Positions 4,966 through 56,594 of a stretch of DNA of 64,000 nt are shown here, one piece after another. The number at the start of each line of letters is the position of its first letter. Position 1 is the first letter of the stretch. Source of the DNA: Cyanidioschyzon merolae (taxonomy: Eukaryota); NCBI GenBank assembly GCA_000091205.1, contig AP006490.2; one strand, given 5' to 3'. Made by a program: the position numbers and the translations under genes. The notes beneath the pieces were generated by a model that saw only the letters and a list, made by a program, of their open reading frames with translations, had not been told where the DNA came from and did not search any database.

Positions 4966-5851
4966 ATGGTATTGCCCACGAGAAACGTAGTTGGGTTCAG
5001 CGTGTACAGTGTTATACACCGGCTAGTCGTCCGCGTTTTGCGTCGCGTAGACAGAAGCGCGGGCGTGATGCCTCGCCTGCGTTCGCACACGCGTACGCAC
5101 GCGCACGGGCGCAGGGCGCCATCGGCGACTGCGGCGGCGCACAGCGGCCCGCCGTAGCGTCGATCAGAATGCGACGCATAAACGGTATAAAGCGGTATTG
5201 CGAGGCCAGAGTTGGATATAATGGTCAGGCGCACGTGTATCGCTGCATCGATGCGCAATCGACGATACGAGCAGGGGCACTGTGTGGCACGGGCACTCGT
5301 GTCCGATACATACGCAACGGGGAACTGCTCATTGTGTTCCTGGACGATGATGTATATCCCCGAGCCTTTGTTATATGTAGAGTCTCGACAATCAAAATGA
5401 AGAAACCGGGTTGAAGGATTCATGAGTAGTTTCAGGAGTCTCGATCGTCGTTGCCGGGCAGCCGCTTAGCCGCGTGGCTGCTGGTATTCGTTACGGCACC
5501 GGGATCAAGGTGCATCGCGACGCCCGCGAATTAAGGTTCGTAATATAGTCGACTCGTATACCGATGCATGCGTTCGAGCCGGCACTCTTCGCCTTTTCTA
5601 GCGTTCAGTACGCTCACGTCACGCATAGTTCGCGCCTTCGATCGTGCGGTTTCCCAGCAACAACACATGGGCGCAGCAGTTCGCGCTGCCCCACTGACGA
5701 GGAAGCGTACGCGCCGTCATCGCTTGAACGAATTGCTCAGAGGCACACACACCGAGCATTCACTGCACTGGGCACCTGCAATACTCGATTCCACTCGAAT
5801 GATGCATCGTCCATGCTTGTGCCCATCGACGCAACCGCACGCAACCGCATC

Positions 5852-6413: not shown

Positions 6414-6603
6414 GACATGAATAACGACGCGTCGATCGCAACGACCACCTGCGCGTGAAATGCGTTGAGCACAGCCGGGCTCCGCCGGATCGGGACTCGA
6501 ATGGTGCCATCAGCATCCCTCGAGTGTTGATCATAGAGCCAGAGGGAACAGAGAGACCAGCGTATTGGAAATCGGCGGTAACAGAGACAGAATGTGAGCA
6601 GTC
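6414..6603 (+). repeat. direct repeat copy 2 of the 1-190 element
   Basis: As above. The two copies bracket the branching-enzyme and uL10 genes, about 6.2 kb apart. Confidence 0.8.
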
Positions 6604-7753
6604 GGTGAACAAACCGGCAAGGGCTGGTGTTCATAACCACGGGAATAGATGCAAACTATAGTAGATATGCGCGCGTTGACAAAGCTTTACATTTTATTCC
6701 TGCATTGTTGGAGAGCGTACACCCGAACTGGCCAATGGACCTGTTCCGTTCTATTCTTTCGTGGGTGTAAACGTCCCGGGGATAGTCCATGCACCGAACC
6801 CGAATTCCTCGGATGTGCGATTGCTATCGGCCGCCAGGATAGCCGCAGTCACTTCTCTCCTGGTGCGTCTACGTTCGACAGACCTCTAGACCACTCCCCT
6901 GGTTGGCGATAGAGCTTCGATCAACCCTGCGAACCTGCAGGTGCCGAGCGTGCCGCACACGCTCGATATCCGGACGGATGCGCCGCTGCCGCCGACCGCA
7001 AAGAGAACGGCACTCCAGTGCCTTGACAGACACCAGCTCAAAATCTAGCGCATGGACACGAAGCGTTCTCCCGGTTGGGCAGCGTTCGCCCTGCACACCA
7101 GTAGGTATACGCGTTCACATAGTCCGTGTACACAAATGCGCTTGGGATCCTTTCGGGCCTGGGACCGCTGATGAGAGTGCTCTAATGGTATCCACGTACA
7201 GTAACGGCTGTTACGAGCCAGGACGCGTGTCACCTCTGTATCCTGGACTGCGAGAGTCGACATCCCATTGAATGTAGACAAGTGGACTGGGTGAGGGACT
7301 CAAAATCTCGGACCCAGCCTCTGCGCCCTGTACACGGGACTTTTATTCCTGCAGCGGTGCATAAAACCGTTGTTCACAACGTACGCATACTAGCATGACC
7401 GAAGTATCCGTTCACAGCTTCAAGGCTTATACTCGTACGACACGAAACTCGGAAGTTGGTCGATCGGCGCCTTCGCCAAGTTGCCCCAAAATCGCTGCAA
7501 CACCGTCCGTGCAGCCTTCACCGCACTCTATGCACAAGAACAGCGGCGCCTTGCGTTCATCACTACAGTTCAGCGGTTCGTTGTATGCAAACCAGCAACC
7601 ATACGACGGGACAAATGTCTCGCTGGTCGCTTGCAAGCGTGCTCCATGCACCGCGTTCAGCCAAACGCTCTGGCGTTGAACGCTCATCCACAGTGGCCCT
7701 GCGTATCGCACGATGATCCCGTGTCGACGTGCCGCTGCGTTGATCACAAAGCT

Positions 7754-23146: not shown

Positions 23147-24056
23147 TACTCAGTAGTATCGAAGCATGGAACACCGCAATGTTTGACCATTTGCCCAGGA
23201 AAATCGTTGTCTATGGAGGTGTGTATGGCGCTCCAGCCTTGATGCGTTGCAGACCCGTACCACACCAGTGCCTTTTCCTCCTCGCTACTGATTGTTTTCA
23301 TCGAAAGTGTGCGACTTTTCAGCGCAATGTCTACGGTGACTAGAAAGCGATTCCGTCGGATATTCGCGGCGTGCAAAGCCGCCGGACGCTGCGGCAGCAA
23401 GAGACATTTCCCGATCTCGGACGAGTCGCTCAAGTCTCTATTCGGAACTCGCCTGCAAGCGCTGGTGCTGGTGGAGTCATGCCCTAGCAAGCCTCTGACT
23501 TTCGATTGCCTCGCCATCTGGCGTGCAGTCAACTTGCCCTACACCGTCTCGTGTGTCCGGGTGTGTTTCACGCTCTGCGACTCTGCTAGGCTCACGGAGC
23601 GCTCTTGCTTGTGATGCGTTGATCTAGTGCGGGACGCATCGACGGGCGTCGTGCAGCATCGATTGCTGAACGCGTTGTACGCTGGCGTCGAATGAGCGGG
23701 AGTGCACCCTCTGGGAGCTGCGGTGCGTCGATTGCCGCAGACTACCACGAGACGAGGCGACGCATCGGTCATGACCTGGTCCAGTGGCTCGAGCGAGCAG
23801 GCGAAAGCACGTGTCGTGTATCCGTACAACCGAGACGATTGGCAATGCCGTCGCTGCCTCATGTACGCCAGCCAGGGATTGTCAATGGCAGCTATATCGA
23901 CGCTCTTGTGATCTCTGCGTGAAAGACGCATACGAAGCGTTCCAGCGTGTTTGCTACGGTGCTTCGAGCATCAGGATAGGTTCTGAGGCTGTCACTACAT
24001 TTCGTCGTATGCCTGCTTGCAACCATCATACCCGAATGCGGATTACACCGAGCGGT
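23147..24056 (+). repeat. dispersed repeat family R1, copy 1 (3'-truncated relative to copies 2 and 3)
   Basis: Starts tactcagtagtatcgaagcatggaacaccgcaatg. About 98-99% identical to 36869-37945 and 46001-47074; ORF-track peptides are identical bar 3-4 substitutions. Identity ends after ...caccgagcggtg. Confidence 0.85.
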
Positions 24057-26473
24057 GTGAAAAATCGGGCAGTACGATATTGTCTGTCCCGGGCATTCGT
24101 TGTGTTCCCGCATTCTGGCTTGATCGAAAAGGTTCTAAAGGAATCAGGACAGCTGGTAAGCTTGCCTCCGAACCTTGTACAAATACTTATTTAACGAGGA
24201 TCGTCAAGTCGAGGTAAGCTAAAAGTGTCTTCCTAGAATAAGAAGCTATGCGGTATTGAATCTAGTCCTGCATTTCCCTGTTTCTGGGTTGCTCCCCGTT
24301 GGCGTCTTCACTCAGAAAGGCCATGAAACAGTGTACAGACGGTTTATCCTTACACTCTCTGCTCGCCCTCTTTTCGCGGGAATTTCGCCTCCTTTGTCCG
24401 GTGCTTCTTTCTCGCTCTTCTTCTTCTGCTTTACGTGGCTGGGCAGCTCTGATGTGGCCGCTACGCTCCATGCTTGTTCCCTTACCTTGAGATGCAGACG
24501 CACTGGGTAGTCGATATGTCCGAAATTCGTTTCTTTTAAGTGTGTACTTACGATTCTTCTAGGTACTTTCGTCGCCTTCTCCATCGCGAGCACGTCCACG
24601 GACAGCAGCACGGCATGACGCTCCATCTCGCATTCGGGCAGTGTATCCCCAGACCAGTCCATTGCTGGTGAAGACAGATCGAGATTTGTCAAAGAGCGAC
24701 CGGGCACGCTTCGGTGTCCTTGATCCGAACGACTCTTGTTTGGATCCACAAGCGCAGAAATGGCATTTGAAAACAGAGGAAACGCCGTCGACTAGCTTCA
24801 ACCAGGGAGATTAGCACGACACAAACCGCAGGTCACGGCGAGATGAGGCGCATGCACCTTCGCCGCTTCTCTTTGATGGAACCTGACGTGGTCCAAGCAC
24901 AGGACAGAGGATAGCGGCTAGGAGAAGCTACGAACTGCTTCGACGAAGAGAGCGTTGCTGAACAGTCCTCCCTGTTCGGCAGTTTGTAGGAGACGACGCG
25001 ATAGCATCGTTGCTGGGGGTGATAGCGTCGGGGTGCTCGCTTGACGCGTCTTTACGAGCAGCGGATTTTCCGTCTTTGACCGCTTACATCCAGGTACACA
25101 GTGTCCTCCGTCTGCCTTCTCAACGAGTAAGACGAGTACCCCGTTCCTCTTGGTATATAGGTTCCCGTTGCGGTGCGAAAGCGATGGTGTGTGTTTTTCA
25201 AAGCGCGACGGTCACAAGTCGAAGCGTACTTTTTTCGTTCTCCATCTGTGGCTCGTTATCGCGGCTCGCATCAACGATTCGGAAACTTCGCGACGTGTGG
25301 CTTCTTTGATCGGAATTCCGAGAGAAACCATCGGGTGCAATGGATGAACTTGAAGACAGTCCTGTACGCAGACTTTGATCATGCCTATTTTGGGTGCACA
25401 ATGTTCGAAATACGGGCAATGAAAAGGGTGCACCATCCGTCTCCTGATCATAGAATAACTGACTTGTACCAGTTAGGTCGTCTTTCGCAGAACTATAGTG
25501 CCAGTACCATGCACTTCCCACTTATATCCCCAATATATAGGATGCATTCCGTTTGTTGAATACCAGCGAGATAAACAAATAAAAACAAGAATGGCCCGCC
25601 GGCACTGGTGCTCCAGAATTCCCTGTTATGCGTATGAAAAACTTGCACCGAATCGGTGCGAAAGCATTTGCGAACGTTGCTGGCGACGGGAGGTCCTCGA
25701 CCACTGCACACCGTGCGTTCGAGGTAGCTCCCGATTGTCCAGTGTTCCGCAATCCTATTGGCATTCGCTTTCTAGAACGCCGCTCCATTTCGTGCCACGG
25801 GACACGATGCGAGGTCCGGTGCCGAAGCTGGCCTGGCAGCGATAACTCCATCAAACAAATGCGAGCATGCAAGAGTTGCGAAGCGTCCACCATACAAACA
25901 GTCGTCCGCAGGTCCTGCGATAACATCGGGATCAAGGCATTCGGCGCCTGGAAACAGGCAATGCTGCCCCGTGCCAAATCTTGCGCATCATCTGTTATCA
26001 CTAGCATTTTCTCCACAGACAAAGCATTGGCAACTGCACCTGCGTTTCCCGGAGGCACACGCGCAAGGCCAGGAATGCACCTCAGCGCCCGCCATCGACA
26101 AGTTCCAGGTCTGAAAACTCCAAAAAAGCGCATCAGGAAACTGGGGTGTCCACTCGGACACTCTCCTATAGGCGAGCTTCTTGAAGTGCGCTCATGTCAC
26201 ATGCAATGTCACGCTTGAGGTACGCACACGCTTTTCCATTTCCCAACACCGAAACGCCGCCAGTCTGTTTGGAACCTGTTGCAGTGCCTGCTATGCTTCG
26301 ACACCCCTGAACCTGGTTCAGGTCGCGAGCCCTGCCCCAGGGTACGCACGGTGCTAGGCACTGCACCGCACCTGCCGTGTGCGGTATGCACGAGGCGGGT
26401 TCAGTCCAGTGGCGTTCGTACGTGCCCAGCTTCCAGAGTACCCATACTGCACCGTCCCTGGTCCTCTGAAAGG

Positions 26474-34712: not shown

Positions 34713-36868
34713 GCGCGATCAGGTGCGAGGAGCCAGGCTCTATTGCTGGAAGTGGCGCTCGTGCGTTGTCAGCACGCCCTCGATCTGGAAATGCGATTTC
34801 GAAAGTGTGTCCGAAGCCTTTTGCACTTGCCAAGCTCGTGGACGAACGAAGGTCAACAGGAGGAGAGAATCCCCAGTCTCTGTGTTCTGACGGATCAGAG
34901 CGGACACGTTCCACTATTCTCTTGACTCTGGATTGATACAGTGGCCTCGAGCAAATCCTGTTTTCAAGGCCACTCAGCGCCGCATGCGGCAGTCTGGCAC
35001 AGAGCAGCCAAACGGGCACGCGTCGCCGTCACCGCAGCAGTAACGGGAACTTTGGTCACGAGTTTCCCCCGGAGACTGGAAACAGCCTCGAACCCGTGTT
35101 TGTTTGGTGAGCGGTAAGCACCAGAGAAATAAGACGCGCGCAGCAGTCCGCCCCGTGTCCGTAGCTGCTCTGTTTGACGCGCGTCACAGGGACTCGGAGC
35201 GCTCTACCGACCACAGCTAGCGACCAACGAGCAGCGAGGCTCCTCGCTGGCCGCAGCGAACAGTTGCCTAAAGCGATGCGTTATCGGTGCGTGCAGGCGC
35301 CGAGATGAAGAGCGCTCCAGCCCCAACGAAGTCACGCGCGGAACCAACAGGCCGTGTAAAGAAGTCGCTCAACACACACACACACGTTCTTGGTCTACGA
35401 CGGCCAGTTTCTTGCCCTATTGATTCCTTAAGCGTTCTCCAGGCGTTTCCCGATAACCCAAGACTAGTGGCAAACTATACACTACTGGGCCCGAAACCGA
35501 GTTCGAGAGTCATGCAACCGTCTGACCGAATCGCGAGCTTCGGCAACGCCGGGTGTCGCGAAGACTTGTGGACAAAGCGGGGGATGTGCTGATTCCTAAT
35601 TGAGGGTGTTTTTGGCGCCAATTTTCATGAGGCGCCTTGGGAGCGCTCCCGAGATGTGCGCTCCTTCTTTCGGATTGCATCTTTCCTGCTCTACAAGACG
35701 TTTCCATGGACCATGGATCCCAGACTGCTCACTTGGTAGCAGCATTTGGAGAAGCATCCTTCATTCTGCACGCTAGCTTCAAGTTCTATTCCTTGAAGTC
35801 CCAGTCGAAGATACCGGACGTTCCTCACGTTCAACAGTCGTGCGCAACGTGCCAGCCACGGGCGTTCGCCATAGCGCCTGTGGCGCCACTGCGTTCATAG
35901 GACGGAGACAGAACGGCATTGTAGTACCACTGGGGGCGTCGGCTCGAGGTTCGGATTCCTATCGCATTAGATTCGCAGAAATCTCGGCGATGCTGTGCTA
36001 ATCCGTGAGCGATCACGCGGCTGTGCTGCTCGCACGTCGCGCGATATGCGTGATCTTGGATAGCGCGCTCCAGTGGTGCACTGCAACGTCATGCTCTGCC
36101 GAACAGAGACTTTGTGTTCAGTCGTCTCAAATCAGAGCATTCTACGGCATACGAACACGAGTATCGGTTGCGGTGCTATACAGAACCTATGACCGTCTTT
36201 GGACCAGGTGCGACTGCTGTGGAAAACAAGCGCCTCTTGGATGGAGTTTCGCAACACTCCCAATAGTGCGGTGGACTCGAAGCATCCGTTCGAACGGCAG
36301 GGTTGCATCTGGAGCGACCTTCGATCGAAGTCATGTTCCACGCGTATCTGCGTGCTCGGCTCCGGTTTGGTGCCTCTGTTCCGTGCAGAGGCACCTGAAG
36401 CGATTGGGACGCGAGACTCGGTGCGCGACCAACGTATGTGCCACGGGCGAACAGCCGCGACTTTGTTTCTGGAATGTTTAGCAGGATCCGGTATGCGATA
36501 CAGAGAAAACGAAAGCCTCCTTGATGATGTATTGGCGACGCTTTGAGGCGTAACGCGGATCTACGAACTGGTGCGCACCAGCAACCCCATTCTAGAGCAG
36601 TCGCTTTGCCTTGATCGCTGACATGAGCTCAGAGCCATGCATCTGCGGCATGGGAACCAACGATCATGCTCCTTAGAAAATTATCTTGCTTGTGGTTTGG
36701 ATAGCGGCCTCAGCATATTTCCATAAAAGTTCCCAGAAGGCCCAGCGCGTGCTCCTACGGGTTTTTCGCTGCCGATGCGATTCGGCCGCCACGTCGCACG
36801 TTGGGTTGCATCCCGTCGCGCGAGGCTTCCGAGCCTCCTGCAAAAGAAACTATTGCAGGAGCTAGATA

Positions 36869-37945
36869 TACTCAGTAGTATCGAAGCATGGAACACCGCA
36901 ATGTTTGACCATTTGCCCAGAAAAATCGTTGTCTATGGAGGTGTGTATGGCGCTCCAGCCTTGATGCGTTGCAGACCCGTACCACACCAGTGCGTTTTCC
37001 TCCTCGCTACTGATTGTTTTCATCGAAAGTGTGCGGCTTTTCAGCGCAATGTCTACGGTGACTAGAAAGCGATTCCGTCGGATATTCGCGGCGTGCGAAG
37101 CCGCCGGACGCTGCGGCAGCAAGAGACATTTCCCGATCTCGGACGAGTCGCTCAAGTCTCTATTCGGAACTCGCCTGCAAGCGCTGGTGCTGGTGGAGTC
37201 ATGCCCTAGCAAGCCTCTGAGTTTCGATTGCCTCGCCATCTGGCGTGCAGTCAACTTGCCCTACACCGTCTCGTGTGTCCGGGTGTGTTTCACGCTCTGC
37301 GACTCTGCTAGGCTCACGGAGCGCTCTTGCTTGTGATGCGTTGATCTAGTGCGGGACGCATCGACGGGCGTCGTGCAGCATCGATTGCTGAACGCGTTGT
37401 ACGCTGGCGTCGAATGAGCGGGAGTGCACCCTCTGGGAGCTGCGGTGCGTCGATTGCCGCAGACTACCACGAGACGAGGCGACGCATCGGTCATGACCTG
37501 GTCCAGTGGCTCGAGCGAGCAGGCGAAAGCACGTGTCGTGCATCCGTACAACCGAGACGATTGGCAATGCCGTCGCTGCCTCATGTACGCCAGCCAGGGA
37601 TTGTCAATGGCAGCTATATCGACTCTCTTGTGATCTCTGCGTGAAAGACGCATACGAAGCGTTCCAGCGTGTTTGCTACGGTGCTTCGAGCATCAGGATA
37701 GGTTCTGAGGCTGTCACTACGTTTCATCGTATGCCTGCTTGCAACCATCATACCCGAATGCGGATCACACCGAGCGGTGGAAAATTCTGAACAGCATCCT
37801 TTGCTTTCCGTACAAGTGTTTGGCGGCGGCTTATTGATTTAAGGGTTCAGCGACGGTCATGATGTTCTTAAACCTGGGATACACGCGCAGCACCAAAGCT
37901 CTTTCAGCATCTACCATCATCGGTTGAAAATGAGTCCCGATGCTG
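36869..37945 (+). repeat. dispersed repeat family R1, copy 2 (full length, about 1.08 kb)
   Basis: Same 5' end as copies 1 and 3; shares an extra roughly 165 bp 3' segment with copy 3 (...ggaaaattctgaacagcatcctttgc...catcatcggttgaaaatga). No recognisable protein in any frame. Confidence 0.85.
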
Positions 37946-44498: not shown

Positions 44499-45998
44499 AT
44501 GGACGGATTGTGGGCACGGAAGGACGGCGGAAACGGTCTTGTGGACGAGCAGGGACTCCGTGCACCACTCTCGGGTGGACTCGGTTGGGAGTCCAGGATG
44601 CGTTCCCGCTGGAATGACTGGCTGCGCAAGCTCGACGTTTACCCCAAGACTGTCGAGGACGTGCGCTTACGTTCTGTGACAGGAGGCATCATCGCTTTAT
44701 TTTCGTACATTTGCATCGGTATTCTGGTCGTTTCAGAGTTTCTGCGGTGGTTGCAGCCCCAGCTCCACTCTAACGTGCTCGTGGACGCGCGCTCGATTCT
44801 CGATACCGAGCCAATCACGGTAGATCTGGGCATAGATCTCCTCGCTGTCGGTTGTGACGAGTTTAGCCTTGACGCGCTCACTGCGAACGGCGCGCAGCTC
44901 CCCAACAGTGTTGTGGAGCTGCGTAAACGCCCATTGGATGCGAGCGGTCAACCTGTGATATTTCCCCGAGGTGCATTCGGACGCAGTCGTCTGCGGAACG
45001 AGCGAGGTGGCGTAGCGCCAGCACCTCAGGCGCTAACGGAAGACCCGCCAAACACACAGCAACTCGAAGGGCGAGTATCCCAGGAAGTACGCGCGCAACT
45101 GAAACAGTATCGCGAAGAGGCGATAGCTTTCCGTGATCGCCTTGCAGCGTTGAACAAGACCGGTGTTGCGTATTGTGGCTCCTGTTATGGTGCTGTGCCT
45201 CAAACAGATCAAGTCGGGGAGGCGAATCAAATAACGTCCGGAGTATGCTGCAACACCTGTGATGAAATTCGCGTCCTGTACGAGGAACGGAACTGGGCAT
45301 TCGATCAAGTGCTTCGAACGGCGGAGCAGTGTGCTGAAAAACGCTACTTGACGCTGCTTCACGAAGCCGGTCGTGTTCAGTCTGGTGGCTGTCGAGTGTC
45401 CGCACGTTTACAGCTACCACGGGTGGCGGGCAACTTTCACTTTGCTCCGGGCAAGGGCCATACGCACCGTATGGGCCATCATGTTCATTCGGTAGATGAT
45501 CAGTTGCTCCACCGCACCTATAATTTCTCGCACCGTATTCGGCATTTGCGGTTTGGTCCGCTGTTCCCGCACCAGCAGAATCCACTTGACGGCGCGATGC
45601 GGATTCTGGAGCAACCGCCGCCGGGGTCACCTTTTGGCAACATGGTGCTGTATTATTGCAAGCTTATACCGACAACATACCGTCGAGACCGCCAGCGCGG
45701 CGACGCACTTCGATCGATGGAGTACGCAGCCGCAGACCTGACACAATCATCGGAACAGGATCGGGTGGGAATCACGCATAGTACGGGTGCATTGCCAGGA
45801 ATATTCTTTTTTTACGAACCTCAGCCTTTGCAAATCGCGTACTTTGAAGGTCGGATGTACGGTTTGCTGCATTTCATCGTCCAGCTATGTGCCATTGTTG
45901 GAGGCGTTTTTACCGTAAGCAGTATGATCGATCGTTTTGTATTTGGGGCGGGAACCTTCATTCGGGCGCAGAAGCGCCGGCTCGGCAAGCTTGGGTAA
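44499..45998 (+). CDS. ERGIC3: ERGIC3/Erv46-family ER-Golgi intermediate compartment protein
   Basis: ORF 44478..45998 (TTG; first ATG 44499). N-terminal LRKLDVYPKTVEDVRLRSVTGGIIALFSYICIGILVVSEF (ERGIC_N plus TM); lumenal Cys-rich domain (YCGSCYGAVP...CCNTCDEIR); a C-terminal TM and FGAGTFIRAQKRRLGKLG tail. Confidence 0.8.
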   Translation: MDGLWARKDGGNGLVDEQGLRAPLSGGLGWESRMRSRWNDWLRKLDVYPKTVEDVRLRSVTGGIIALFSYICIGILVVSEFLRWLQPQLHSNVLVDARSILDTEPITVDLGIDLLAVGCDEFSLDALTANGAQLPNSVVELRKRPLDASGQPVIFPRGAFGRSRLRNERGGVAPAPQALTEDPPNTQQLEGRVSQEVRAQLKQYREEAIAFRDRLAALNKTGVAYCGSCYGAVPQTDQVGEANQITSGVCCNTCDEIRVLYEERNWAFDQVLRTAEQCAEKRYLTLLHEAGRVQSGGCRVSARLQLPRVAGNFHFAPGKGHTHRMGHHVHSVDDQLLHRTYNFSHRIRHLRFGPLFPHQQNPLDGAMRILEQPPPGSPFGNMVLYYCKLIPTTYRRDRQRGDALRSMEYAAADLTQSSEQDRVGITHSTGALPGIFFFYEPQPLQIAYFEGRMYGLLHFIVQLCAIVGGVFTVSSMIDRFVFGAGTFIRAQKRRLGKLG

Positions 45999-46000
45999 TA

Positions 46001-47074
46001 TACTCAGTAGTATCGAAGCATGGAACACCGCAATGTTTGACCATTTGCCCAGAAAAATCGTTGTCTATGGAGGTGTGTATGGCGCTCCAGCCTTGATGCG
46101 TTGCAGACCCGTACCACACCAGTGCGTTTTCCTCCTCGCTACTGATTGTTTTCATCGAAAGTGTGCGGCTTTTCAGCGCAATGTCTACGGTGACTAGAAA
46201 GCGATTCCGTCGGATATTCGCGGCGTGCAAAGCCGCCGGACGCTGCGGCAGCAAGAGACATTTCCCGATCTCGGACGAGTCGCTCAAGTCTCTATTCGGA
46301 ACTCGCCTGCAAGCGCTGGTGCTGGTGGAATTATGCCCTAGCAAGCCTCTGACTTTCGCTTGCCTCGCCATCTGGCGTGCAGTCAACTTGCCCTACACCG
46401 TCTCTTGTGTCCGGGTGTGTTTCACGCTCTGCGACTCTGCTAGGCTCACGGAGCGCTCTTGCTTGTGATGCGTTGATCTAGTGCGGGACGCATCGACGGG
46501 CGTCGTGCAGCATCGATTGCTGAACGCGTTGTACGCTGACGTCGAATGAGCGGGAGTGCACCCTCTGGGAGCTGCGGTGCGTCGATTGCCGCAGACTACC
46601 ACGAGACGAGGCGACGCATCGGTCATGACCTGGTCCAGTGGCTCGAGCGAGCAGGCGAAAGCACGTGTCGTGCATCCGTACAACCGAGACGATTGGCAAT
46701 GCCGTCGCTGCCTCATGTACGCCAGCCAGGGATTGTCAATGGCAGCTATATCGACTGTCTTGTGATCTCTGCGTGAAAGACGCATACGAAGCGTTCCAGC
46801 GTGTTTGCTACGGTGCTTCGAGCATCAGGATAGGTTCTGAGGCTGTCACTACATTTCATCGTATGCCTGCTTGCAACCATCATACCCGAATGCGGATCAC
46901 ACCGAGCGGTGGAAAATTCTGAACAGCATCCTTTGCTTTCCGTACAAGTGTTTGGCGGCGGCTTATTGATTTAAGGGTTCAGCGACGGTCATGATGTTCT
47001 TAAACCTGGGATACACGCGCACCACCAAAGCTCTTTCAGCATCTACCATCATCGGTTGAAAATGAATCCGGATG
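46001..47074 (+). repeat. dispersed repeat family R1, copy 3 (full length); begins 3 bp after the ERGIC3 stop codon
   Basis: Near-identical to copy 2 over about 1.07 kb. Its 5' end lies immediately 3' of the ERGIC3 TAA (45996-45998), i.e. inside the presumptive 3' UTR. Confidence 0.85.
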
Positions 47075-51777: not shown

Positions 51778-52916
51778 CTGGGGAGTTCCTCGCGTCTGTC
51801 CGCGGCGAAAAATACCAGGCGTGCACGCCGTAAGCTAAGCGCTAGCAGGTACGCTTGCAAGCGGCGGATGCGCGTGTCGCGGCGTGGCTGCCGGTGATTT
51901 TCTTTCGATGGAAAAATATCTCTATGAACCATGGATCCCAGATTGCGTGATGGATATTTGCATACGGGAATGTTTCGTTTATGCTGCTATCTACCTTCAA
52001 GTTCCATTACCTATACTTCCTCTCGGATGTGCTGGTCGTTTCGTACGTTCTATCGTGCGCCCAGTACCTGCCTTGAGCGCTCACAATAACGCCTATAGCG
52101 CAAGTGCGGATGCTGCTCAGAGACAGAACGGGTTTGTCATGCCCGTTTGGGCGTCGGATGCAGGTCAGGATATGGACCTGTTTCCATGACAAGTGCAGCT
52201 GCCTTCTCGTGGCATTATCGCAGGAACGGAGAATCTCCCGTACACATCCCGATGCGAATGATTTCCATCGTGCACTGCCGCTGCAGATTAAACGTGTCAA
52301 CGAAAGCGCGAACATTTGCTTCAACTCCTCAAACGTTGCACCAGTGAAAGACCGAGCCTGCTTATCACACATGCAATGGAAACCGGGCTGGCTCTGTCAA
52401 ACAGATATGAGCTTCGCCCGCTGTACCTCTTTGCGAACAAAATGGAAGGGGCGCCCACCGAACGAACTCGGGCATACATACTCAAGTTTGGGTCTCTTCC
52501 CCATGCCATCAACACCAGCAAATTCGGGCGTTTTCTCCGACTGCTCTCTTTGCCCCTCTTATCTCCGTCTCTGAAGATGCACATCCCTACGGTGCCTCTG
52601 GCTCTGTTGTCAGCAGTCGAAGGATGTTGATGGCAGCGTTCAGGTGCCAATTTCGCCGCTCGCGGCTGGTGTCGACGCGTCTGATCCGCCGATGGAAGTT
52701 GCGAACTACACGTCATTTGCCACTTTCAGCTTCGTTACATAGAGCCTCGGTGCGCATTTCGCAGCGGTGACACTTGGATGTGGTCGGTTGTTCCTATGGG
52801 TCCACGGTGCCTCCTGTTTCTCCGTAGGTCGCTATGTGTCCCGTGAACGCTTGCTTCGTCGATTGGTATATGCCCTTGACGTCTACCCAGGGCTCTGGTT
52901 GATGTTAAATCCGCTT

Positions 52917-53803
52917 CTGCACCTGGTGCCGATGCTACGGACCCTGGCTTCTTCTGGGCCACTTGGTCGGCGATTACGCTGTCCGCTGCACATGGGGGCA
53001 CACGCTGATCCGCTCAACAGAGGATCTGTGGAACGCGATGCTGTCCATTATGAAACAGGTGCCGGAAAGAGACCCCAGCCAGGAGCTCAAGCCGCAAAGT
53101 ATCGATCCGTCTATGCATCCTCCGTGCATAGCGATTGCGCACGCTCTACTGGAGGCGGTCGCTGCGAGGACTGAATTCCGAGTCCGAGACCTTTTCTCCA
53201 TCCACACAATAGAGACGGGAGCCTCTGCGAGTATATCCGATGAGAGGAACCGCGCTGCTGGTGTCGAATGCAACAATGTCGATGACCGCAAGCAGAGTAG
53301 GATATGTCTCCAGAACGGAATCGAATATTCGACGTGAGAAGCTACGGGATATGTCTGCAGAAGCTTGTGCCGTCGTCGCCACGGGAGGACGCCAAGTTGT
53401 TTGCGCTGGAAATCTGGCGGCGCGCGTTGCCGCACTCCACGGATTGCCCTGAAACAGAACGATCGAGGCTTTGAAGAATGCGTGATTCTCGTAAACTAGA
53501 CGTAGGAGAAAGGAGTGGCGTAGAGGCTTCTGGGTGTCATCTGGATCCTGATATCTGGTATTTCACGCGACCTTGTTTGATGGCGTCGCGAAACATCTTG
53601 ATTCCGGTGACGTTACCAAATCCAGCGGCCAAGCGTGGAAGGAGCCACTCGGAAAACACGACCTAAAATCCTTAAACTACCTACGAATTCGTACATCCTT
53701 ATCGGTTCACTTGGAATATCGAGGCTGTACCAATAAAAAATTTCGGAAAAGAATCGAACTGCAAGAACAGAGTGAGCAATGTAGCGTTCCATTTCAATCT
53801 GAC
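52917..53803 (+). repeat. left arm of a large inverted repeat (R2 family member); about 98% identical to the reverse complement of 55212-56096
   Basis: Identity runs from ctgcacctggtgccgatgcta... to ...ccatttcaatctgac. ORF-track peptides in the two arms are near-identical on opposite strands (MRDSRKLDVGERSG... at 53478+ vs 55348-; the 124-aa ORF at 52963+ vs 55677- differs at 4 residues). A weaker similarity to R2 copy B extends outward to about 52715. Confidence 0.9.
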
Positions 53804-54283
53804 ATAGATATATCGTCCCAGGCGCCGAGCACTACGAGAGCGATGCAATCGAAGGCTGCTCACGGGCACGCGATCCATCGTATCCCTCAGATTTCGACTC
53901 GATGCAAGGCATCTCAGCGTGAACAACAGCGCCCGTGCCTCGGGGGCGCTGTTTCCGATCGGCGTGATGCGCACCACGATTTTGGGAGCGCCGCCCCAAA
54001 AGAAGTTGCAAACGCCGCCACCAACATCGGGATTGGGGCGAGCGCCGTCGCAGGAACACCACAAATGCGCCTCTGCGCGCATTTCACCATCATCTAGATC
54101 GCCAGATTTGGATGCTTTACTAAACCGGAGATCAGAGCATAGACACCGAAGCGCAGTGGACATGATCGTAATAAATAAATCTGCATTGTCGCTTTCCGCA
54201 GAGAAAACGAACAAGCTTCTCAGCGTCACCACGCGGTCTTCATTGCGCAAACGAACGTAACGAGCCTCGTGTATAAAGTAGAA

Positions 54284-54955
54284 ATGGCGGTCTCCAGGGT
54301 GCTTATTGTGGCTTGCCTGACCTTTCTAGCAGCGTTTGCATCGCTTGCTCAGGCATATGAATACAAGCAGCAGTGCCAGGTAGAGCAGGTGTGTGCGCAA
54401 TATGTGAACCAATGCCAGCAGTATGAGAATGTATGCCTTCAGCCATATCAGAAGTGCAAGCAGTACGAGCAGATTTGCGTGCAGCAGCAGCAGCAGTGCA
54501 AGAACTATCAGACTGTGGAGAAGCCAGTGAAGGTCTGTGTCCAATACGAGAAGGAATGCATCCAGTTTGCATACAAGGAGCAGTGCAAGCAGCAGGAGCA
54601 GGTGGTTCAGCAGCAGTACTGGTATCGTCGCTGGTACAAGCAGGAAGTGCCGGTGAAGCAGGTGTGTCAGAAGCAGCAGTACTGCGTCCAGTATCAGGAG
54701 AACAAAAACAAATGTGCGCAATATGGAACACAGTACCAGAAGATTCAGGAGTGCGTGCAGTACGAGAACCAATGCGTCCAATATGGACAAGGCAAGTGTC
54801 TTCAGTATGAACAGGCTTGTCAGCAGTACGGGCAGAAGTGCGCGAACTATCAGCAAGTGTGCAAACAGTACCAAAAGGTGCTCGTCTGCAAGAAATATCA
54901 GCAGGAATACAAGAAGCAGTATCAGCAGCAGTACTACGCGCAGGGATACTACTGA
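54284..54955 (+). CDS. secreted Gln/Cys/Tyr/Lys-rich periodic repeat protein (about 13 C-x-[Q/N]-Y units, 20 Cys), no recognisable homologue; candidate extracellular structural/cross-linked matrix protein
   Basis: ORF 54269..54955 (GTG at 54269; first ATG 54284). MAVSRVLIVACLTFLAAFASLAQA is a textbook signal peptide. Mature part: YEYKQQCQVEQVCAQYVNQCQQYENVCLQPYQKCKQYEQICVQ...CVQYENQCVQYGQGKCLQYEQACQQYGQKCANYQQVCKQYQKVLVCKKYQQEYKKQYQQQYYAQGYY. The gene sits alone in the 1.4-kb spacer between two 0.89-kb inverted repeats. Confidence 0.6.
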   Translation: MAVSRVLIVACLTFLAAFASLAQAYEYKQQCQVEQVCAQYVNQCQQYENVCLQPYQKCKQYEQICVQQQQQCKNYQTVEKPVKVCVQYEKECIQFAYKEQCKQQEQVVQQQYWYRRWYKQEVPVKQVCQKQQYCVQYQENKNKCAQYGTQYQKIQECVQYENQCVQYGQGKCLQYEQACQQYGQKCANYQQVCKQYQKVLVCKKYQQEYKKQYQQQYYAQGYY

Positions 54956-55211
54956 AGGAGCTTTGCGATGGACGTGGTGGCTGGTCATCTCTATGTGAGC
55001 GGACAGAGGACAGAGTCCGCGGAGTGACGTGGGAGTGCTAATGGACAGTATATCTGATGGAAGTGTACAAGGACGTTCATTGTAGTGCCTTGAACAATTA
55101 TAAATTCTGAATTTCGTCATCATTTCAAAGCGCCCTTGTCTGAGTTGCCATCTGCTGCCCTGGCCCGTGGATTGTCGCATCGCTTTCATGGCGCGTCTGC
55201 TTCTCTGTGAC

Positions 55212-56096
55212 GTCAGATTGAAATGGAACGCTACATTGCTCACTCTGTTCTTGCAGTTCGATTCTTTTCCGAAATTTTTATTGGTACAGCCTCGATATTC
55301 CAAGTGAACCGATAAGGATGTACGAATTCGTAGGTAGTTTAAGGATTTTAGGTCGTGTTTTCCGAGTGGCTCCTTCCACGCTTGGCCGCTGGATTTGGTA
55401 ACGTCACCGGAATCAAGATGTTTCGCGACGCCATCAAACAAGGTCGCGTGAAATACCAGATATCAGGATCCAGATGACACCCAGAAGCCTCTACGCCACT
55501 CCTTTCTCCTACGTCTGGTTTACGAGAATCACGCATTCTTCAAAGCCTCGATCGTTCTGTTTCAGGGCAATCCGTGGGGTCCGGCAACGCGCGCCGCCAG
55601 ATTTCCAGCGCAAACAACTTGGCGTCCTCCCGTGGCGACGACGGCACAAGCTTCTGCAGACATATCCCGGAGCTTCTCATGTCGAATATTCGATTCCGTT
55701 CTGGAGACATATCCTACTCTGCTTGCGGTCATCGACATTGTTGCATTCGACACCAGCAGCGCGGTTCCTCTCATCGGATATACTCGCAGAGGCTCCCGTC
55801 TCTATTGTGTGGATGGAGAAAAGGCCTTGGACTCGGAATTCAGTCCTCGCAGCGACCGCCTCCAGTAGAGCGTGCGCAATCGCTATGCACGGAGGATGCA
55901 TAGACGGATCGATACTTTGCGACTTGAGCTCCTGGCTCGGGTCTCTTTCCGGCACCTGTGTCATAATGGACAGCATCGCGTTCCACAGATCCTCTGTTGA
56001 GCGGATCAGCGTGTGCTCCCATGTGCAGCGGGCAGCGTAATCGCCGACCAAGTGGCCCAGAAGAAGCCAGGGTCCATAGCATCGGCACCAGGTGCA
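55212..56096 (-). repeat. right arm of the large inverted repeat (R2 family member)
   Basis: Reverse complement of 52917-53803 with about 2% mismatch. Inner junctions are sharp: 53803|53804 and 55211|55212. Confidence 0.9.
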
Positions 56097-56594
56097 GAAA
56101 CAAACTCGACATTCTTGCACAAAGCGCACACCTCGTAGCGTTCAACCCCTGGCGCATTGGATCGATGCGTGCGCCGAAAGCGCTTGTCACGCTCGAATTT
56201 GATGTCACAGGAAACGGCAGCGTTCCGGAGCCGAAATCGGCGCAGCAGCGCGCAGACGCGCGCGCGCCATCACTGCCTATGCGATCTGCGCGCCGACTAC
56301 GATGTCCCAGCAGTTTCGGCGCGCAAAAGCGCTTTCTTGGCTTTGGGCGGTGGGTACTCAAGCCAAACCAGCCGCGCGAGGGTCTACGGAAACGCCGGTG
56401 GTGTTGTGTGTGTGTGCAGGGCTTTCGTGCTCGCTCATTTTCCAACTGAACTTGGCTCAATTACGTGTAGTGTACAAAGTTATCTAGGATTCGATCGTGC
56501 GGGAGTGCTTTCAGAGTTTCACGAACACGCAGCTCTTCGGCGGAGCAGCCAAAGCCATTCAAGTGCTGTCGGAATATCGTGAAGCTTTTACCGG

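Follow-up and report, generated by a model that had tools for sequence, protein, structure and literature searches.

In this work, we have analysed a 64,000-nucleotide stretch of the genome of Cyanidioschyzon merolae, a red alga living in hot springs (assembly GCA_000091205.1, contig AP006490.2; hereafter the window) and, within it, an open reading frame (ORF) on the plus strand at positions 54284-54955. Our results show that this frame is a genuine gene under purifying selection, coding for a protein that is predicted to be secreted and is rich in Cys, Gln, Tyr and Lys (the QCY protein). Judged by sequence comparison, it belongs to an undescribed family restricted to one algal lineage, with a new domain in which twenty cysteines are set out in a heptad repeat and two cysteine arms are likely to fold back on each other as a hairpin. 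We consider it rather probable that the QCY protein is a cross-linked structural protein of the cell wall, serving as a building block of the diploid stage.

Results

A secreted precursor with a heptad cysteine repeat

The frame opens with an ATG that is the sole Met codon of the precursor, ends in a TGA stop and translates into 223 amino acids (aa). A first-pass annotation of this DNA, made from the letters alone, had described a signal peptide ending in SLAQA, a mature chain of roughly 200 aa, 20 cysteines and an abundance of Gln, Tyr and Lys, and our counts bear this out. The precursor begins with MAVSRVLIVACLTFLAAFASLAQA, followed by Y at the predicted cleavage site, in an n/h/c layout that agrees with the A-x-A rule. 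The signal peptide was assigned by eye and by this rule, from hydropathy and from the homologues, all of which carry an equivalent in the alignments, ending in A-x-A and followed by W, Y or a similar residue. The mature chain of 199 aa contains 20 Cys, 58 Gln (29%), 29 Tyr (15%), 23 Lys (12%), 20 Val and 15 Glu, and reads ...QYQQQYYAQGYY at its C-terminus. Asp, His, Met and Ser are absent from it, Thr is nearly so, and no N-glycosylation sequon occurs; the QCY protein is therefore not a glycoprotein scaffold. By hydropathy, the precursor has no transmembrane (TM) segment.

The repeat unit is the heptad C-x-Q-Y-x-x-x. Ten of the 19 intervals between successive cysteines are exactly 7 residues long, against a mean of 1.0 and a maximum of 6 in 20,000 shuffled sequences, and the motif C-x-[QNK]-[YF] opens at 15 of the 20 cysteines, including four copies of CVQY (shuffles: mean 1.4, maximum 8). 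In the Fourier spectrum of the cysteine positions, period 7 has a power of 0.59 and period 11 one of 0.01. Thus, of the C-x-Q-Y periodicity of about 11 residues proposed at the first pass, the motif stands, far beyond the shuffles, while the period has to be corrected to 7.

Two mirrored arms around a conserved loop

The twenty cysteines are divided equally between two arms, which are separated by a loop and followed by a short tail (Table 1). Across the family the cysteine spacing is essentially invariant and quasi-palindromic in 11 of 12 members. The consensus for the C arm, read from the turn outward, is 6/7, 10, 13/14, 7, 8, 7, 7, 7 and 9, which the window protein matches exactly, and the N-arm spacing is identical in 9 of the 10 other members with 20 cysteines. 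The remaining one, L001b, has 7 instead of 9 in the first N-arm interval; its deviations amount to this one and to a 4 in place of a 6/7. The 13-residue interval is the third from the turn in both arms. Between the arms, the loop positions Y112, W113, R116 and W117 are invariant (alignment A3), and the distance from Cys10 to Cys11 ranges from 22 to 77 residues among the members, which indicates that the loop tolerates insertions. The tails vary freely; that of a type-a paralogue extends, as a tandem array of Y/K/Q repeats, to about 250 residues. The last residue of a tail is nearly always aromatic.

A paralogue from Cyanidium caldarium (L005a, L005:4780-5469) has 7+7 cysteines: each arm has lost three, and both 13-residue intervals are gone. 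The mirror symmetry, together with arm lengths that vary in step, argues that the arms pair in antiparallel fashion, with Cys_i facing Cys_(21-i). We infer the hairpin and its disulfide pairing from the spacing symmetry, from the matched 7+7 paralogue and from the pairing of the arms in AlphaFold models, and regard this topology as likely. The same paralogue also carries a tandem-repeat tail of the type (V)IPxKQ.

AlphaFold, one of the checks suggested at the first pass, gave a divided answer. The N arm was paired with the C arm in both runs. In the first, based on an alignment of six sequences, one of the five models was confident (predicted local distance difference test score, pLDDT, 77, with the arms above 90) and showed two strands of 75 residues forming one long beta hairpin. 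In the second, with the signal peptide removed, matching secondary-structure elements lay in corresponding segments of the two arms, in mirror order. Three points weigh against the hairpin as modelled. The other four models of the first run were poor, so the fold is not robust; the second run reached a pLDDT of 59, with mixed helix and strand, and did not reproduce the beta hairpin; and a flat beta ribbon with one disulfide per repeat sits uneasily with a period of 7 residues.

The heptad periodicity also has the form expected of a coiled coil with its core at positions a and d, with Cys at i, Tyr at i+3 and a period of 7. Cys at 'a' and Tyr at 'd' are thus coiled-coil-like, yet Val, Tyr, Cys and Gln abound in the arms, which also contain conserved Pro and Gly. 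Readings as a coiled coil, as a beta-helix of the antifreeze type and as a metallothionein were considered and not adopted.

A family found in three algal genera

Relatives were sought by single-sequence searches and then by profile searches of 5.8 billion and 1.8 billion proteins. The single-sequence search found one relative (P0001, 41% identity, E-value 5e-41), whose contig holds three paralogues inside 10 kb. The profile searches gave a handful of strong matches, all of Cyanidiophyceae type, with E-values of 8e-75 to 8e-30 and 4e-94 to 1e-34; those with names are CDCA14G3897 of Cyanidium caldarium, CCYA15G3913/F1559_000941 of Cyanidiococcus yangmingshanensis and CMR328C (BAM82536.1) of C. 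merolae. No named match from Galdieria was among the profile-search results for the family.

We define the family by full-length similarity, by the 10+10 cysteine spacing and by a signal peptide together with the W-x-R-R-W loop, all of which the window protein shows. Its identity to the other members is 37-57%, with all 20 cysteines conserved. CMR328C, CDCA14G3897 and CCYA15G3913 share with it the signal peptide, 10+10 identically spaced cysteines, the loop with W-x-R-R-W and a C-terminus that is aromatic (E-values 1e-30 to 1e-94), but they fall into other paralogue groups at 37-45% identity, have loops and tails of different length and have neither a described function nor a Pfam family. At the first pass the repeat had been placed in no recognised family, and the databases agree: in Pfam the window protein matches no family at E<=0.001, the family has no sequence relative in the PDB and no fold match, and we found no mention of CMR328C, CMH161C or such a family in the literature. 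Members of the family occur in Cyanidioschyzon, Cyanidiococcus and Cyanidium.

In Cd. caldarium and in one further relative, three paralogues form a syntenic cluster between the Peptidase_S26 and NifU genes. Within the cluster, it is the type-b member to which the window gene is orthologous (57% identity to L001b, 51% to L005b); in C. merolae the type-b gene lies at a different locus that is not syntenic with the cluster. C. merolae has at least four members of the family, the P0053 type counted; a search for paralogues had been suggested at the first pass. On C. merolae-type contigs a type-a paralogue precedes CMR328C; its length varies between samples (354, 462 or 488 aa in L025:1170-2234, L027:5617-7005 and L028:1168-2634) with the copy number of a Tyr/Lys/Gln repeat of about 26 residues (QKQYYWEPQKTQYYKKNDYKKNVYND). 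With this tandem repeat in its tail, the 462-aa form holds 63 Tyr and 85 Lys. One apparent truncated allele (P0094/L032) was discarded: L032:1-1262 is chimeric, its first 122 nucleotides (nt) corresponding to window positions 54600-54721 and the remainder to an unrelated DnaJ-like gene.

Small secreted proteins with a C-x-Q-Y heptad were also seen in metagenome-assembled genomes (MAGs) of Syntrophaceae and other deltaproteobacteria and on further metagenome contigs (P0093, P0095, P0099, P0101 and P0102; L033-L036, match at 5001-5345), P0102 being a short hairpin of 5+5 cysteines around a D-T-K-G-R turn. They match the algal family profile weakly, with E-values of 1e-8 to 1e-4, and from the sequences the likeness could be homology or convergence. 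As to a source for horizontal transfer, the similarity is weak and the contexts, which are short contigs and Syntrophaceae MAGs, are uninformative.

Diploid-specific expression and a candidate wall protein

In Data Set S8 of a published expression study (PMC13353863), the sole model listed between CMH159C and CMH162C, the two genes that flank the QCY gene, is CMH161C (BAM79828.1), a 'hypothetical protein' without signal peptide and with 6 TM segments by Phobius. For this model the study gives 980-1197 transcripts per million (TPM) in diploids, which have walls, compared with 1.3-1.5 in haploids of MS1 and 0-0.6 in 10D, with log fold changes of 9.9 and 12.0, and the counts are strand-specific (PMC13353863). 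Whichever strand is transcribed, few loci in the genome are as diploid-specific as this one, at about 1000-fold.

The walls of these algae are formed only in the diploid phase, contain no cellulose and consist of 50-55% protein. A secreted lysyl oxidase (LOX), reported in the Cyanidiophyceae except Galdieria, is predominantly expressed in the diploid; in the 2026 life-cycle paper, only FAS1, LOX, TFF-like and RBOH genes were highlighted. The QCY family comprises several paralogues with variable repeat tails; its proteins are predicted to be secreted, rich in disulfides and non-glycosylatable, with a Lys content of 12-17% and a Tyr content of 15%. The window protein has the properties of a LOX substrate, being Lys-rich (12%), predicted to be secreted and encoded at a locus that is about 1000-fold specific for the phase of the oxidase, although the RNA that was counted may come from either strand. 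At the first pass, a cross-linked extracellular structural protein held by disulfide, di-tyrosine or transglutaminase-type links had been guessed. The structural part of this guess fits the proteinaceous, diploid-only wall, the diploid-specific locus and the diploid LOX; of the chemistries named with it, di-tyrosine and transglutaminase-type links are putative, and in this lineage that of LOX is better documented. The putative localisation in the wall is our own deduction, and we infer the role as a LOX substrate purely from these circumstances, which counts against it.

We propose that the QCY gene would be induced about 1000-fold when the alga enters the diploid phase with its wall. Two arms of 70-75 residues, with 10 cysteines each, would fold back around the W-x-R-R-W loop, and pairing of Cys1 with Cys20, Cys2 with Cys19 and so on would build a ladder of up to 10 disulfides. 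Such a hairpin would be a stiff rod of roughly 10-25 nm, with Gln, Tyr and Lys on its surface. The protein would be exported and then built into the largely proteinaceous, acid-resistant wall, where covalent cross-links could make it insoluble: disulfides that are kinetically locked at pH 1-2, together with lysine-derived links for which the secreted LOX would be responsible. Disulfides are inert to exchange at low pH. In this scheme, intramolecular disulfides would stiffen the rod, while Lys-derived and perhaps Tyr-derived bonds would join the molecules.

A secreted protein of the diploid need not bear load, and the strongest competitor of the wall proposal, which we hold to be possible but unlikely, is a real secreted protein with another task: an adhesive of algal mats, a shield against acid and protons in the manner of TFF-like proteins, a Cys-rich protein that binds metals or a factor of the sexual cycle. 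The signal peptide and the diploid-specific locus would fit any secreted function of the diploid, many other secreted proteins are diploid-specific in C. merolae, and Tyr/Lys-rich sequences occur in bioadhesives. On the other hand, the existence of several paralogues with long and variable Y/K/Q tails is typical of matrix proteins. For a metal-binding role in particular, the even, invariant and mirror-symmetric cysteine pattern argues for structural disulfides over metal ligands, thiol-metal binding is weak at pH 1-2, and heavy-metal tolerance has been reported to be equal in haploid and diploid cells.

The coding strand

The minus strand carries a longer frame of 371 codons, Leu-rich and opposite to the QCY frame (Table 1), with about 210 continuous hydrophobic residues by hydropathy and its first ATG only at codon 85. 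The published description of CMH161C, with its 6 TM segments and no signal peptide, fits these hydrophobic residues; moreover, in the protein collection searched, CMR328C is present, but 10D has no counterpart there of the QCY protein encoded at this locus. On these grounds CMH161C (BAM79828.1) is probably the mirror ORF, and the QCY protein would then be missing from the reference proteome. An exact-sequence look-up of the mirror ORF, in five ATG-start variants and in the 371-aa form, found nothing in protein collections.

It could thus be argued that the minus-strand ORF is the true gene, coding for a multi-pass membrane protein of diploids, and that the QCY frame is its mirror: the reference lists a single model here, with about 1000 TPM in diploids. 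We regard this as highly improbable. The mirror frame is open solely because the sense strand rarely or never uses TTA, CTA and TCA codons, and its equivalent is broken by 5 stops in the orthologue L001b and by 2 in P0054, so that a Leu-rich membrane protein is not what the orthologues conserve. In the plus frame, by contrast, all 20 cysteines, the signal peptide and the positions of start and stop are conserved in the alignments. Differences from the orthologues at sense codon positions 1/2/3 number 73/57/126, 76/64/115 and 82/77/131; the order pos3>pos1>pos2 is the normal coding pattern for the plus frame and is reversed for the mirror frame, where variation peaks at the first codon position. 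In all five pairs the sense frame exceeds the mirror frame in amino-acid identity (e.g. 0.57 vs 0.44) and in the synonymous fraction, with synonymous codon changes of 63 vs 35 and 83 vs 43. The codon adaptation index (CAI) of the sense frame, 0.85, is above that of every reference gene of the window, and that of the mirror frame, 0.71, is below them all. Finally, annotations and gene callers chose the QCY frame in Cyanidium, in Cyanidiococcus and in CMR328C, as did an automatic gene caller on the Logan contig L004. Comparative sequence evidence therefore marks the plus frame as the selected one, and the earlier view that the antisense Leu-rich ORF is an artefact holds.

The transcript data speak less clearly, and here our strand assignment has to face contrary evidence. 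Transcription from the minus strand only had been named at the first pass as an outcome fatal to the plus-strand gene, and the published data do not cleanly dispel it, since the strand-specific counts are assigned to CMH161C, apparently a minus-strand model. If the identification of CMH161C with the mirror ORF is right, these counts, at face value, mean abundant minus-sense RNA. Plus-sense RNA at the locus is presumed. The minus-sense signal could possibly stem from convergent transcription out of the two arms of the inverted repeat that surrounds the gene (see below), from a strand leakage of about 1% of an abundant sense mRNA, or from a wrong identification of CMH161C.

That there is no gene at all, only a chance open frame in CAG-rich, low-complexity DNA, can be practically dismissed: of the 223 sense codons 50 are indeed CAG, and there is an open frame on either strand, but homologues in three genera have invariant cysteine spacing, signal peptides and syntenic clusters, the substitutions are of the purifying-selection type, and the locus is highly and differentially expressed.

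The locus and its inverted repeat

Table 1. Features of the QCY locus in the window
Feature	Positions	Strand	Remarks
Coding sequence of the secreted 223-aa precursor, stop included	54284-54955	+	Type-b member of the Cyanidiophyceae 20-Cys family; rests on ORF, homologues and codon-position pattern
Signal peptide, 24 aa	54284-54355	+	Predicted cleavage AQA-Y; sole hydrophobic stretch (Kyte-Doolittle); equivalent N-termini in homologues
N arm, Cys31-Cys101, 10 Cys	54374-54586	+	Heptad C-x-Q-Y-x-x-x; intervals from the turn outward 9,7,13,7,7,7,7,7,6
Central loop	54587-54664	+	Conserved Y-W-Y-R-R-W-Y; WYRRW at 54620-54634
C arm, Cys128-Cys202, 10 Cys	54665-54889	+	Mirror of the N arm; intervals from the turn outward 6,10,13,7,8,7,7,7,9
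C-terminal tail	54890-54952	+	Short, Tyr/Gln/Lys-rich, ending YY; tail lengths differ among paralogues
Leu-rich mirror ORF, 371 aa, TTG start	54326-55441	-	Compositional artefact of CAG/AAG/TAC-rich sense codons; probably annotated as CMH161C in 10D
TATA-like tgtataaag	54270-54278	+	7-12 nt 5' of the sole ATG; probably no functional TATA box
Inverted repeat, left arm, ~0.9 kb	52902-53803		Repeat search; contigs from the eIF3g side stop within the arm
Inverted repeat, right arm	55212-56112		Repeat search and BLAST to the left arm

The eIF3g protein encoded in the window is identical to C. merolae 10D BAM79827.1 (CMH159C), and C. merolae-type metagenome contigs match the window DNA at about 99% identity. 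This places the QCY gene on chromosome 8, with eIF3g on one side and the CPP factor (CMH162C) on the other. Its neighbours are intron-poor genes for a glycogen branching enzyme, PNPase, an M17 peptidase, a DEAD helicase, a lipase, an ERGIC protein, eIF3g and the CXC/CPP factor. The TATA-like element noted at the first pass is present, but a promoter role found no support, because TATAAA lies too near the sole Met codon to act as a TATA box if the mRNA is to contain this ATG. No convincing shared upstream motif was found among three C. merolae family members, namely the window gene and two paralogues.

The gene sits in the 1408-nt spacer of an inverted repeat, whose arms are 98.4% identical over 889 nt (BLAST). 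Its homologues in other genomes have no such flanking repeat. Short-read contigs break in the arms; the 3' end of L004, a k-mer break at the repeat, lies exactly 30 nt inside the right arm. Two independent metagenome contigs, L013 (1-2445) and L014 (1-2013), have the eIF3g flank, and not the CPP flank, attached 3' of the gene, an orientation opposite to that of the window, and the arm at their junction carries single-nucleotide polymorphisms of the right-arm type. A third, L012 (1-3279), is a collapsed palindrome. The orientation in L013 and L014 may be a real inversion isomer, of the flip-flop kind, or an arbitrary path of the assembly through the repeat. The arm itself could be a descendant of an old dispersed element or a part of the ancestral cluster.

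Relatives of the repeat arm, at about 67% identity, were seen at L027:4129-4430, 5' of the type-a paralogue on chromosome 18, and at L006:9532-9975 (about 20.3-20.7 kb of the window). Elsewhere in the window, a dispersed repeat of about 0.9-1.1 kb occurs in three direct copies with 98.5-98.9% identity (23147-24063, 36866-37942 and 45998-47074), one of which begins exactly at the stop of the ERGIC/ERV gene, and a 191-nt direct repeat links positions 1-191 and 6414-6604 at 97% identity.

Discussion

What is new here is the domain and the family; cross-linked wall proteins rich in Cys, Tyr and Lys are, as a kind, already known elsewhere. The Tyr-rich gametocyte and oocyst-wall proteins of coccidia and Cryptosporidium, together with the OWP/COWP proteins, offer a working analogy only: they are secreted, stage-specific and Cys/Tyr-rich, have periodic cysteines and end up in a cross-linked, resistant wall. 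These wall proteins share no sequence or profile similarity with the QCY protein (no Pfam match) and differ in cysteine period and domain architecture. Moreover, unlike in the oocyst-wall systems, the cross-linking enzyme documented in the cyanidialean lineage is LOX and not a peroxidase. This brings to mind elastin and collagen, the LOX substrates, which are likewise Lys-rich fibrous extracellular proteins, and the cyanidialean oxidase is secreted and predominantly expressed in the phase in which the locus is active. There is no sequence relationship with them, and elastin and collagen are Gly/Pro-rich, while the QCY protein is Cys/Gln/Tyr-rich and predicted to be disulfide-bonded.

With regard to the fold, in the beta-helical antifreeze protein of Tenebrio short Cys-spaced repeats, there of 12 residues, and disulfides rigidify an elongated structure, and the alpha-hairpinins (CxxxC...CxxxC helical hairpins) are hairpins with cross-arm disulfides. 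The QCY protein differs from both in its period of 7, with one Cys per repeat, in its arms of about 70 residues with 10 predicted rungs and in having no Pfam or fold match. The only Pfam entries approached by family members, both below threshold, are Paramecium_SA (PF01508) and Pneumocystis MSG (PF02349), which are Cys-periodic extracellular proteins as well: the algal homologues score 10-18 bits against gathering cut-offs of 21-22, and one bacterial protein is borderline at 22.2 bits.

A bolder and more tentative extension of the wall proposal, to which we give a limited chance, would make the family the bulk protein of the cyanidialean wall, whose protein content of 50-55% has been known since 1968. 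A rod of new fold, consisting of a single long hairpin held by about 10 disulfides at heptad spacing, would be polymerised by LOX into an acid-proof shell, and the inverted repeat would form a cassette, possibly present in both orientations or driving convergent transcription, from which the antisense signal in stranded RNA-seq could arise.

What could the QCY family mean for these algae? The wall is thought to be the barrier that permits life at pH 0.5-2, and its structural proteins have so far been unnamed. The family would provide a concrete candidate for the wall scaffold and for the substrate of LOX, at a time when the Cyanidiophyceae are becoming a genetic model and tools based on homologous recombination exist. 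The probable wrong-strand model at a strongly diploid-specific locus would hide the QCY protein from proteomics searches and from secretome statistics. Beyond the algae, a 20-Cys heptad hairpin without structural relative, if this is what the QCY protein forms, would be of interest to research on protein structure and materials.

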